Made by a program: the position numbers and the translations under genes. Shown here in pieces: positions 24,456 through 25,908 of a DNA stretch of 45,302 nucleotides. The notes beneath the pieces are model-generated. The model was not told where the DNA came from and did not search any database. It saw nothing but the letters and a program-made list of their open reading frames with translations. Position 1 is the first letter of the stretch; each line of letters begins with the position of its first letter. The DNA comes from a virus, in IMG/VR virus record IMGVR_UViG_3300021400_000002, positions 1 through 45,302 of that record; one strand, written 5' to 3'.

Positions 24456-24620
24456 TTATTTATCAGCTTTACGCCTTCTTTTAGGCTTTTCGGCTTTTAC
24501 TTCTGTATCGATTGTAGGGGCTTTTTCAGCCGCCTTTTCCTCTGCCTTAGTGTTTACACTAGCGAGGTCGGAATCAGCCTGTATGGGCTTGTCTATGCGC
24601 TTAACGCCAGCAAATACCAT
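24456..24620 (-). CDS. Small Lys/Glu-rich protein (54 aa)
   Basis: ATG 24620 with SD GAGGAGG upstream. Product MVFAGVKRIDKPIQADSDLASVNTKAEEKAAEKAPTIDTEVKAEKPKRRRKADK. Below the track cutoff. Confidence 0.55.
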   Translation of the reverse strand: MVFAGVKRIDKPIQADSDLASVNTKAEEKAAEKAPTIDTEVKAEKPKRRRKADK

Positions 24621-24622
24621 GC

Positions 24623-24877
24623 TTACTCCTCCTCACAAGTCAGACCACTTAAGTCAAAGGTCTGATAGCTGGTAAACGAACCGTTAGAAGTTACGATCTT
24701 AAACTTTTGTGTATCCTTGTCGGTAATCTTGAATACGCCCATCTTGTCAGGATCGTTGATTATCTCAACAAGACCGCTGCCCTGTGAAGGTTCAAGACCT
24801 ACCTTAACGGATGTTGCATCCGGGTCAATATCGCTGAATGCCAGTGCAAGGAAGTTGCCTGCACCCCAGTCAGTCAC
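24623..24877 (-). CDS. Capsid-associated beta-rich domain. The frame is open upstream to 25033, so it is probably expressed as a -1 frameshift extension of the major capsid protein
   Basis: The track ORF starts at GTG 24877, but the same frame continues without a stop and without ATG/GTG/TTG back into the capsid gene (..DFWGTPASDLQTGVTVANNAITGTLKYLAEGQL-VTDWGAGNFLALAF..). Confidence 0.6.
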   Translation of the reverse strand: MTDWGAGNFLALAFSDIDPDATSVKVGLEPSQGSGLVEIINDPDKMGVFKITDKDTQKFKIVTSNGSFTSYQTFDLSGLTCEEE

Positions 24878-25008
24878 AAGCTGTCCCTCTGCAAGGTATT
24901 TCAGCGTACCAGTGATGGCATTGTTAGCTACTGTTACTCCTGTCTGGAGATCACTTGCAGGTGTCCCCCAAAAATCCGTGTCACCGTCTGGAGCATCTAC
25001 GGCAACAC

Positions 25009-25908
25009 TTAGGAAGGGTTTATTGTGCCCTTTACAACGCCAGCCGCATACTCAACAAGGATATCGATACCGCAAGCAACGAGGGTCTCAACCTGCATTC
25101 TCTCATTGGTTGCATAGCCAGAGTTGATGCCGATGAAGCCTGTCTCATCTGTGGTCAGACCAAATGCCTTAGAGAGATCACCGTTCATATTCAGATAGTA
25201 CATTACAAGGTTTTCCTTTGCAGTTGCAAGGAATGTACCCTGAGTTACCTGAGATGTGATTACCACAGTGCCGAGACCAAGAAAATCCTCGATGTAGTTC
25301 AGACCGAATGCGTTCTGAGTTGTAATAGCAGCTGCGCCGAGATATGTTGCGATATCCATAGGATTAACGAAATATACAGGTTCTGCCGCATCATTCTCAA
25401 ACTTAGTCTGAAGCTGTCCCCAAGCAGCAGCCAGTGCGCTCTGGAGGTCTACACCTGTAGCAGTTGAAGCACCTGTGATAGTGCCGTTCATGAATGTGAA
25501 CAGTTCACTTCTCACGTATGCCTGTGCATCTCTCAGCATCTTAGCATCGGTATCTCTTACTGCAGACTCATAGCCGCTCTTAACGATAGCTTCAGCGGAT
25601 GCAGCTTTTCTCCACTTCTTAAGGGAGATAGCACCAACTGCTGTCTTTGTCTGCTCATACTCAGACAGAGGGATGATCTCGCCTTCTGCTACATCGCCGT
25701 CTTCCAGTGTGCCATCGATGGTGTACATATACAGTGTAGTGCCTTCCTGCATGGGAATTCTTCTTGTTACACCGATTACCTCAAGGAACTTGTTGAGGTT
25801 TGTGTGGGTAAATCTTCTAACGAAGTCTACCTCTCTTACTTTCTTCATGTTGTCAGCAACGATCAGGTTCTCTTCTGCTGCGTTAGTTACGTTGATAGGA
25901 TCAGCCAT
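25009..25908 (-). CDS. Major capsid protein
   Basis: 299 aa, directly after the scaffold gene. MADPINVTNAAEENLIVADNMKKVREVDFVRRF...; appropriate size and position. Confidence 0.8.
   Translation of the reverse strand: MADPINVTNAAEENLIVADNMKKVREVDFVRRFTHTNLNKFLEVIGVTRRIPMQEGTTLYMYTIDGTLEDGDVAEGEIIPLSEYEQTKTAVGAISLKKWRKAASAEAIVKSGYESAVRDTDAKMLRDAQAYVRSELFTFMNGTITGASTATGVDLQSALAAAWGQLQTKFENDAAEPVYFVNPMDIATYLGAAAITTQNAFGLNYIEDFLGLGTVVITSQVTQGTFLATAKENLVMYYLNMNGDLSKAFGLTTDETGFIGINSGYATNERMQVETLVACGIDILVEYAAGVVKGTINPS
25027..25033 (-). other. Candidate -1 slippery heptamer A AAG GGC near the end of the capsid gene
   Basis: Zero frame gtA AAG GGC aca. The -1 frame opens 6 codons upstream (after a TGA) and runs to 24623. 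Confidence 0.45.

Follow-up and report, generated by a model that had tools for sequence, protein, structure and literature searches.

C-terminal extensions of the major capsid protein (MCP) that are produced by ribosomal frameshifting have been established for gene 10 of phages T3 and T7, for Lactobacillus phage A2, and for Listeria phages A118, A500 and PSA (PMC5009743). We analyzed a junction of this kind in a viral DNA of 45,302 nucleotides (nt), positions 1 to 45,302 of the IMG/VR virus record IMGVR_UViG_3300021400_000002, which belongs to a rumen phage of Clostridia and is hereafter called the window. The MCP gene of the window is followed in the -1 register by an open frame encoding a domain of about 130 residues, and a programmed -1 frameshift very probably produces a fusion of MCP and domain. 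The gain of such a C-terminal domain by -1 frameshifting had been proposed in an earlier note on this DNA, and the proposal is supported here by the recurrence of the -1 arrangement behind at least six head families, by natural gene fusions, by a slippery heptamer and by a downstream hairpin.

In phages T3 and T7, a -1 shift near the 3' end of the capsid gene likewise leads to a minor extended subunit (10A/10B), the extension of T3 being Ig-like (PMC5009743). Both differ from the window phage in having enterobacterial hosts, another MCP family, another slip site and another extension, the one described here belonging to phrog_31690. The slippery sequence of phage A2 is of the C_CCA_AAA type. 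In this Firmicute siphophage, a -1 shift at the last codons of the head gene (gp5A/gp5B), together with a downstream stem-loop, adds an Ig-like extension and thereby gives a second capsid component (Garcia et al. 2004, via PMC5009743 and PMC10885494). A2 carries a different appended domain family and is one characterised phage, in contrast to the at least six head families considered here. The cps genes of Listeria phages A118 and A500 (-1) and PSA (+1), and the tsh genes of these phages, are likewise recoded at the 3' ends of capsid and tail-tube genes of Firmicute phages, and Pro codons close to the stop codon or to a structure serve as the shift sites, as in AAA CCC_UGA for the +1 shift (PMC5009743). 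The Pro-codon shift in Listeria tsh and PSA cps is +1, whereas that of the window phage is predicted to be -1 at A_AAC_CCY. One locus of our collection, L001:3860-3960 (IMGVR_UViG_3300031867_002056), resembles the +1 CCC_UGA sites of Listeria phage PSA: its phrog_544-type MCP (52% identical) ends in ...ACA CCC TGA, a Big_2-like Ig open reading frame (ORF) follows in the +1 frame, and an ATG located 35 nt upstream is without an obvious Shine-Dalgarno (SD) sequence.

The capsid protein gp8 of phage Phi29 carries a BIG2 domain fused in frame to its C-terminus. At the same C-terminal position, a Phi29_MCP-family protein (PF25622; L034) carries the window-type domain, also in frame; Phi29 gp8 itself involves no recoding, and its domain belongs to an Ig-like family other than that of the window. 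More generally, Ig-like domains on phage structural proteins are likewise promiscuous C-terminal beta-sandwiches, joined either in frame or by frameshifting (Fraser et al. 2006, J Mol Biol 359:496, via PMC5009743). Domains of this class belong to the I-set, FN3 and Big_2 families of Pfam; the window domain matches none of these and shares only a general likeness of fold (best Z 7.3).

Results

Organization of the capsid-domain junction

The MCP gene of the window (25908-25009, minus strand, zero frame) encodes a protein of 299 amino acids (aa; 32.4 kDa), which matches the major head protein family phrog_544 (E 1.6e-51) and is 62% identical to the head protein of Butyrivibrio virus Ceridwen. 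The protein ends in ...VVKGTINPS, followed by the stop codon TAA at 25011-25009. The domain frame, measured from stop to stop, extends over 25051-24623 of the minus strand (142 codons) and lies in the -1 register relative to the MCP gene, as had been noticed before; its overlap with the MCP gene amounts to 43 nt, or 13 sense codons plus the stop, rather than the 11 codons first counted. The first ATG, GTG or TTG of this frame is the GTG at 24877, which is codon 59 and is preceded by 58 open codons. The existence of a start-less open stretch was thus confirmed, but the 52 codons originally given for it had been counted from a heptamer proposed at that time, A_AAG_GGC, 6 codons upstream of which the -1 frame does begin. 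When read after the shift proposed below, the -1-frame coding region occupies 24623-25015 (minus strand) and comprises 130 residues, FLSVAVDAPDGDTDFWGT...LTCEEE, before the TAA at 24625-24623.

The codons upstream of GTG 24877 encode part of a conserved domain

The codons upstream of the GTG had been described as protein-like, which was borne out by a PHROG profile, by a large set of homologues and by the recurrence of the arrangement in about 62 loci. The profile phrog_31690 (function unknown) is matched over its positions 1-107/107 by residues 35-142 of the -1 frame (E 1.5e-10), the alignment beginning 24 residues upstream of the GTG codon. Searching 5.8 billion proteins yielded 1694 homologues of the domain with lengths of 104-154 aa, among which the 46 residues before the GTG are conserved; well before the GTG position lies the motif TVxAxDGxTDFWGT, which is conserved wherever a homologue extends to it. 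The annotated N-termini of the homologues are spread over about 50 codons. The -1-frame peptide encoded by 25015-24878, upstream of the GTG, begins FLSVAVDAPDGDTDFWGTPASDLQTGVTVANNAITGTLK.

Independent initiation at the GTG (24877-24875, minus strand), which is the start given in the ORF track, would produce a free protein of 84 aa and leave the upstream codons untranslated. The -1 frame contains no other canonical start, and the GAGGG reported 7 nt upstream of this GTG is indeed present, at a distance suitable for an SD sequence. The same GAGGG is also made up of the Glu-Gly codons of the conserved motif EGQLV, and the 46 conserved residues before the GTG lie inside the PHROG profile. In the AlphaFold2 model described below, three strands and a short helix precede the GTG codon, indicating that the 84-aa product would be a truncated fold of one confidently modelled domain. 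The codon at this position is GTG in just 10 of the 92 homologous loci, while GTA, GCA, GTT and others are found elsewhere. Initiation at this GTG is therefore not characteristic of the family and would leave the fold incomplete; the GTG reads as an internal Val codon, and its use as the start of a free protein is very unlikely. The earlier ranking of GTG initiation as the lesser alternative is also supported by the lack of start codons in half of the loci, and both the homologues and the profile extend upstream, so that the conserved domain does not start at the GTG.

The domain recurs in the -1 frame behind unrelated head genes

Domain-encoding loci were collected from IMG/VR (80 loci) and from GTDB genomes (29 loci), giving 98 distinct junctions; the source genomes were mostly metagenome-assembled genomes (MAGs) of rumen and gut Ruminococcus, Lachnospiraceae and other Clostridia. 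Junctions were assigned to the -1 class when the upstream ORF was 200 aa or longer and its 3' end was overlapped by a domain ORF lying in the -1 frame. By this classification, 63 of the 98 junctions are -1-frame overlaps, or about 62 without locus L106, which is really a separate gene with an SD sequence and ATG of its own. Among the remaining junctions, a long protein carries the domain in frame in 19 cases, one junction is in the +1 frame and two are truncated. A further 13 are arranged in other ways, most of them being stand-alone genes that encode 45-70 additional aa at the N-terminus. No start codon precedes the TDFWGT core in 31 of the 63 -1 loci.

The genes upstream of the -1 loci belong to unrelated head families, including phrog_544 (the window type), 10, 3270, 422, 2729 and 283, of which phrog_10 / PF05065 is HK97-like and phrog_3270 represents protease-MCP fusions. 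Among the in-frame fusions, the partners checked were capsid proteins of PF05065, Phi29_MCP (PF25622) and Phage_cap_E (PF03864) and proteins of phrog_2729, and also the major tail proteins phrog_88 and phrog_885 (L021:865-1866 and L036:913-1890). As judged from these gene fusions, the domain is a module attached promiscuously to the C-termini of capsid and tail-tube proteins and thus decorates both tail tubes and capsids, and its covalent attachment to the C-terminus of MCP is demonstrably tolerated.

Since in-frame fusions occur in other phages, the -1 offset of the window might represent an assembly or sequencing indel, or gene decay, in an originally in-frame fusion of MCP and domain. About 62 distinct and independently assembled loci share the -1 offset, and they retain the stop codon of the short product, the slippery heptamer and the hairpin, leaving this explanation with a vanishingly small probability.

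In L006, L026 and L061, the upstream ORFs of about 505 aa are fusions of a head maturation protease with MCP (phrog_3270, with an MCP-like C-terminal part), which end in A_AAC_CCG/T and are followed by the same -1 domain unit. In L074:643-1914, the -1 frame is open for 423 codons through the entire MCP gene, and hence the script classed it as an in-frame fusion; with an RKPF junction and a hairpin, it is probably an ordinary frameshift locus. Stand-alone domain genes with their own ATG were found in L040, L050, L059, L062, L079, L092, L102 and L106, and an example of their N-terminal segment is MTVVKSL...IAGGIAFGSSNVTV. The gene upstream of the stand-alone gene in L092 is an exonuclease (phrog_284) and not a head gene. 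These stand-alone genes may encode non-covalent decoration proteins. Four domain loci (L095, L097, L098 and L105) are located in MAGs labelled Bacteroidaceae, Gastranaerophilaceae, Akkermansia and Coriobacteriales, which may reflect mis-binned phage contigs or a wider host range. No match to the domain was obtained by tblastn among 50,697 GenBank phage records, and therefore no cultured phage of that set carries the domain.

A slippery heptamer is conserved before the head-gene stop codon

An in-phase heptamer of the form X_XXY_YYZ is located just before the head-gene stop codon in 56 of the 63 -1 loci, against a chance expectation of a few per cent by rough estimate. The window has A_AAC_CCT at 25021-25015 (minus strand), in zero-frame phase, and A_AAC_CCN is the form found in 48 of the 63 loci (N being T in 28, C in 17, G in 2 and A in 1); the other heptamers are A_AAT_TTN (3 loci), G_GGA_AAN (3), T_TTC_CCN (1) and A_AAA_AAN (1). 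The distance from the end of the heptamer to the end of the stop codon is 3 nt in 43 loci, 6 nt in 6 and 12 nt in 7. The final base of A_AAC_CCN is T or C in 45 of 48 cases, in agreement with the preference for C_CCY over C_CCR in shifting in E. coli (PMC4066793). Retention of both the tandem-slippage form and the phase by such varied heptamers argues for slippage of two tRNAs, and not for an Asn-Pro motif kept at the protein level. Ceridwen, which is without the domain, is also without the heptamer: its MCP ends in ...KGTIGTGA, and 5 nt further on the following gene starts at an ATG of its own. The heptamer therefore travels with the domain and not with the capsid gene.

Six -1 junctions, L012, L028, L038, L069, L075 and L076, are without a strict X_XXY_YYZ and end in GAT TTT TAA, AAT TTT TAG, TCT TTA TAA or TCG GGG GAA TRA. 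The downstream hairpin is found in L012, L038, L069, L075 and L076 but not in L028, and the six are candidates for single-tRNA (P-site) slippage beside the stop codon. Transcriptional slippage was rejected because the site has no long homopolymer run (AAACCC only). In a non-exhaustive search of the full-text literature for A_AAC_CCU/C/T together with frameshifting, only an unrelated insect-virus paper was found, and no context of capsid frameshifting.

The earlier note had placed the shift at another heptamer, A_AAG_GGC (25033-25027, minus strand), with the junction ...VVK-GHNKPFLSV.... This heptamer is present in zero-frame phase and inside the open -1 window, and in E. coli A_AAG_GGC is moderately shift-prone, exceeding 0.1% without any stimulator (PMC4066793). 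It is not conserved among relatives of the same MCP family, which have GTA GTA GGT (L046), GTT GTT GGT (L060), GTT AAG GGT or GTG AAA GGA at its position, while the conserved A_AAC_CCT lies 12 nt downstream. The closest relative is L002, with identities of 73% for the MCP and 68% for the domain; there, a -1-frame TAA stands exactly at the position of A_AAG_GGC, and the shift in L002 must therefore occur further downstream. The conserved hairpin is 18 nt away from A_AAG_GGC, beyond the usual spacing of 5-9 nt. It is thus unlikely that the shift takes place mainly at A_AAG_GGC, which could serve at most as a minor secondary site with a small contribution in the window phage alone. The junction predicted from the conserved site is ...VVKGTINP-FLSVAV..., and the one previously given was not borne out. 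The segment 25000-25060, once suggested for reporter assays, covers both heptamers but cuts the hairpin.

A covarying hairpin follows the heptamer

A hairpin with a stem of 10 bp and a loop of 11 nt is located at 25008-24978 (minus strand), where 25008-24999 pairs with 24987-24978. It begins 6 nt after A_AAC_CCT, the spacer TCCTAA including the MCP stop codon, and this 31-nt element has a free energy of -12.1 kcal/mol (z -2.79). An equivalent hairpin, with other stem sequences and a spacer of 3-8 nt, was detected in most of 44 loci. In a gapless alignment of these 44 sequences, 76.4% of the cells are paired, compared with 63.0% in shuffles (0/500), and 66 cells are changed on both sides of the stem, compared with 19 in shuffles. 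For covariation, the stem scores 0.437 and slid registers score 0.13-0.21, and double changes are found in 7 of the 10 pairs. An alignment of 55 sequences repeated this picture, with 76-78% of the cells paired over both alignments.

The hairpin also distinguishes the frameshift loci from the other forms. The mean folding energy of the homologous 48-nt segment is -15.4 kcal/mol in the -1 loci (n=62), -13.6 in the in-frame fusions (n=19) and -9.3 in the stand-alone genes (n=15), the contrast between -1 loci and the others giving a Mann-Whitney p of 6e-6. The canonical hairpin is lost in most of the in-frame and stand-alone forms despite the similarity of the encoded peptides. The exceptions that retain it, L074, L047, L073 and L042, look like misclassified frameshift loci.

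The loop of the hairpin may pair further with a segment 8 nt downstream to form an H-type pseudoknot, whose candidate stem 2 (24966-24993, minus strand) joins CUCCA (24993-24989) to UGGGG (24970-24966). An equivalent pairing, GCCGAA with UUCGGC, is present in most relatives. For stem 2 alone, 75.8% of the cells in the 55 sequences are paired, compared with 68.2% after shuffling (0/500) and 24-54% when the register is slid, and 4 of the 6 pairs show double changes. Given that both arms also encode protein and that the sequences share ancestry, the evidence for this extension is no more than suggestive.

Predicted shift and its product

The A_AAC_CCT heptamer, in combination with the hairpin, is probably the main shift signal. 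Under this prediction, most ribosomes would stop at the TAA of 25011-25009 and release the 299-aa MCP, while a fraction would slip back by one nucleotide. A ribosome whose P site is at AAC (Asn) and whose A site is at CCU (Pro) would pause on A_AAC_CCU, held by the 10-bp hairpin 6 nt downstream, possibly extended as a pseudoknot. The Asn-tRNA would then re-pair from AAC to AAA and the Pro-tRNA from CCU to CCC, and reading in the -1 frame would resume at TTC (25015-25013) and run to the TAA at 24625-24623. The fusion product would consist of MCP residues 1-298 (...VVKGTINP) and FLSVAVDAPDGD...LTCEEE, with a length of 428 aa and a mass of 46.1 kDa, the appended part being 130 residues; the estimates of about 45 kDa and about 135 aa made in advance were near to these values. 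Its predicted trans-frame peptide is GTINPFLSVAVDAPDGDTDFWGTPASDLQ and its predicted tryptic junction peptide GTINPFLSVAVDAPDGDTDFWGTPASDLQTGVTVANNAITGTLK, of the generic form ...NP then L-T/S-G-V/L-T-V. In the capsid, the extended MCP would be built in as a minority subunit alongside the 299-aa form, with the domain displayed on the outer surface.

The appended domain is predicted to be a beta-sandwich

The domain was modelled by AlphaFold2 from residues 13-142 of the -1 frame and an alignment of 83 sequences. The model is a single compact all-beta sandwich with a mean pLDDT of 95.6, in agreement with the beta-rich character that had been attributed to it. No Pfam family was detected at E <= 1 for either the MCP or the domain, nor any match to I-set, fn3 or Big_2, and Foldseek found nothing in the PDB at E <= 0.001, the best E being 0.014. 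An exhaustive VIA search returned FN3, PKD, Ig-like and glycoside hydrolase beta-sandwich modules at Z 6-7.3, a level that reflects a common arrangement, and in BFVD the only matches of the domain were uncharacterised metagenomic gut phage proteins. The model thus points to an Ig/FN3-like beta-sandwich, the likeness being generic and not that of a specific relative. The domain is acidic (pI 4.05). By analogy with other phages that bear Ig-like domains (Fraser 2006, reviewed in PMC5009743), it would be displayed on the capsid exterior by a minority of the subunits and would likely provide weak adhesion to glycans or to the surfaces of cells or particles in the gut.

Neighbouring genes

All genes of the capsid region are on the minus strand. 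In the order listed, a minor head protein gene (28308-27214) comes first, then a gene for a 161-aa phrog_5 protein located between the minor head protein and scaffold genes, and then the scaffold protein gene (phrog_194, 26677-25928) upstream of the MCP gene. The domain ORF is followed by small head-tail genes, also on the minus strand. A Lys/Glu-rich ORF of 54 aa (24456-24620, minus strand), without a PHROG family match, has its ATG at 24620, 2 nt past the stop codon of the domain ORF.

Discussion

Several points weigh against a programmed frameshift as the source of an MCP-domain fusion, and the case for it rests wholly on comparative sequence analysis. In E. coli, A_AAC_CCN is not a strong shift site, and even in combination with the IS3 pseudoknot A_AAC_CCA did not reach the threshold (PMC4066793); how efficiently A_AAC_CCY works in the window phage would be governed by the tRNAs of its Clostridia host. 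The whole 141-nt junction folds no better than shuffles (z -0.11), the signal being confined to the 31-nt hairpin, and the controls for covariation only partly remove the effects of relatedness and coding constraint. The existence of stand-alone genes indicates that the domain need not be covalently attached in order to function. Finally, in 9 of the 56 loci the heptamer is followed by TTG or ATG, exactly where a start with a 4-nt TTGA/ATGA overlap would sit, and translational coupling is possible there.

The last two points bear on an alternative without any frameshift, namely that a free protein of about 130 aa is made by termination and reinitiation at a near-cognate codon beside the MCP stop and then decorates the capsid non-covalently. 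The -1 overlap is the register of the common ATGA/TTGA stop-start overlaps, TTG (8 loci) or ATG (1 locus) directly follows some of the heptamers, and in some loci the domain is encoded alone, behind an ATG of its own. Such stand-alone forms are longer at the N-terminus by 45-70 aa, a segment not found in the -1 ORFs. The -1-frame codon after the heptamer is CTG in 18 loci, TTA in 14, TTG in 8, TTC in 8 and CTC in 2, with GTC, ATG, GTA, ATA, TCT and CCA in one locus each, and mostly specifies Leu, Phe, Met or Val (conserved K-P-L/F). In 47 of the 56 loci, the codon directly after the heptamer is thus no canonical start, and the window itself has TTC followed by CTA and AGT. SD-like motifs are present upstream in 10 of the 56 loci, compared with 16% of control windows, an absence of enrichment that applies equally to an upstream SD-like stimulator of the dnaX type. 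Reinitiation also leaves unexplained why differing heptamers all keep the in-phase X_XXY_YYZ form and why the hairpin is retained only where the frames differ, and the in-frame fusions indicate that the domain is functional as a covalent extension of MCP C-termini. Taken together, reinitiation is quite unlikely, and -1 frameshifting remains the preferred explanation.

Beyond the single locus, it is possible, though on balance slightly doubtful, that slip site, hairpin or pseudoknot, and domain form one portable recoding cassette. The heptamer constitutes the junction, and the hairpin lies within the first 15 codons of the domain. Recombination could graft such a ready-made cassette onto the 3' ends of unrelated head genes and thereby give a fixed minority of decorated subunits. 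The -1 arrangement is present in about two-thirds of the junctions and across at least seven head-gene groups separated by BLAST, the representatives of which match six PHROG families. A quick maximum-likelihood tree of the domain (127 columns, short search) includes some well-supported clades that mix head families and needs 18 head-family switches, against a minimum of 9 and a mean of 35 in shuffles; this tree is compatible with repeated transfer of a cassette. A portable cassette would explain both the -1 arrangement across head groups and a tree that needs twice the minimum number of switches. If it is indeed the case, A_AAC_CCY, weak in E. coli, would be an efficient shift site in Clostridia.

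What is new here is a domain family without a Pfam model, and a unit of heptamer, hairpin and domain behind at least six unrelated head-gene families. For annotation, the call of an 84-aa ORF would be wrong and should be replaced by a joined MCP coding sequence of 428 aa; hundreds of public homologues, with called starts spread over about 50 codons, would share this start error. The family offers more than 50 natural and independently diverged examples of one putative shift signal, the unusual heptamer A_AAC_CCY plus a covarying hairpin, with the in-frame and stand-alone versions that lack the hairpin as natural controls, and it could thus serve as a test set for frameshift-prediction tools and for slippery-site rules outside E. 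coli, in the Firmicutes. With respect to the phages themselves, the domain would represent a new and abundant surface-display domain on the capsids and tails of phages of rumen and gut Clostridia, and may be relevant to the adherence of these phages to fibre, mucus or cells.

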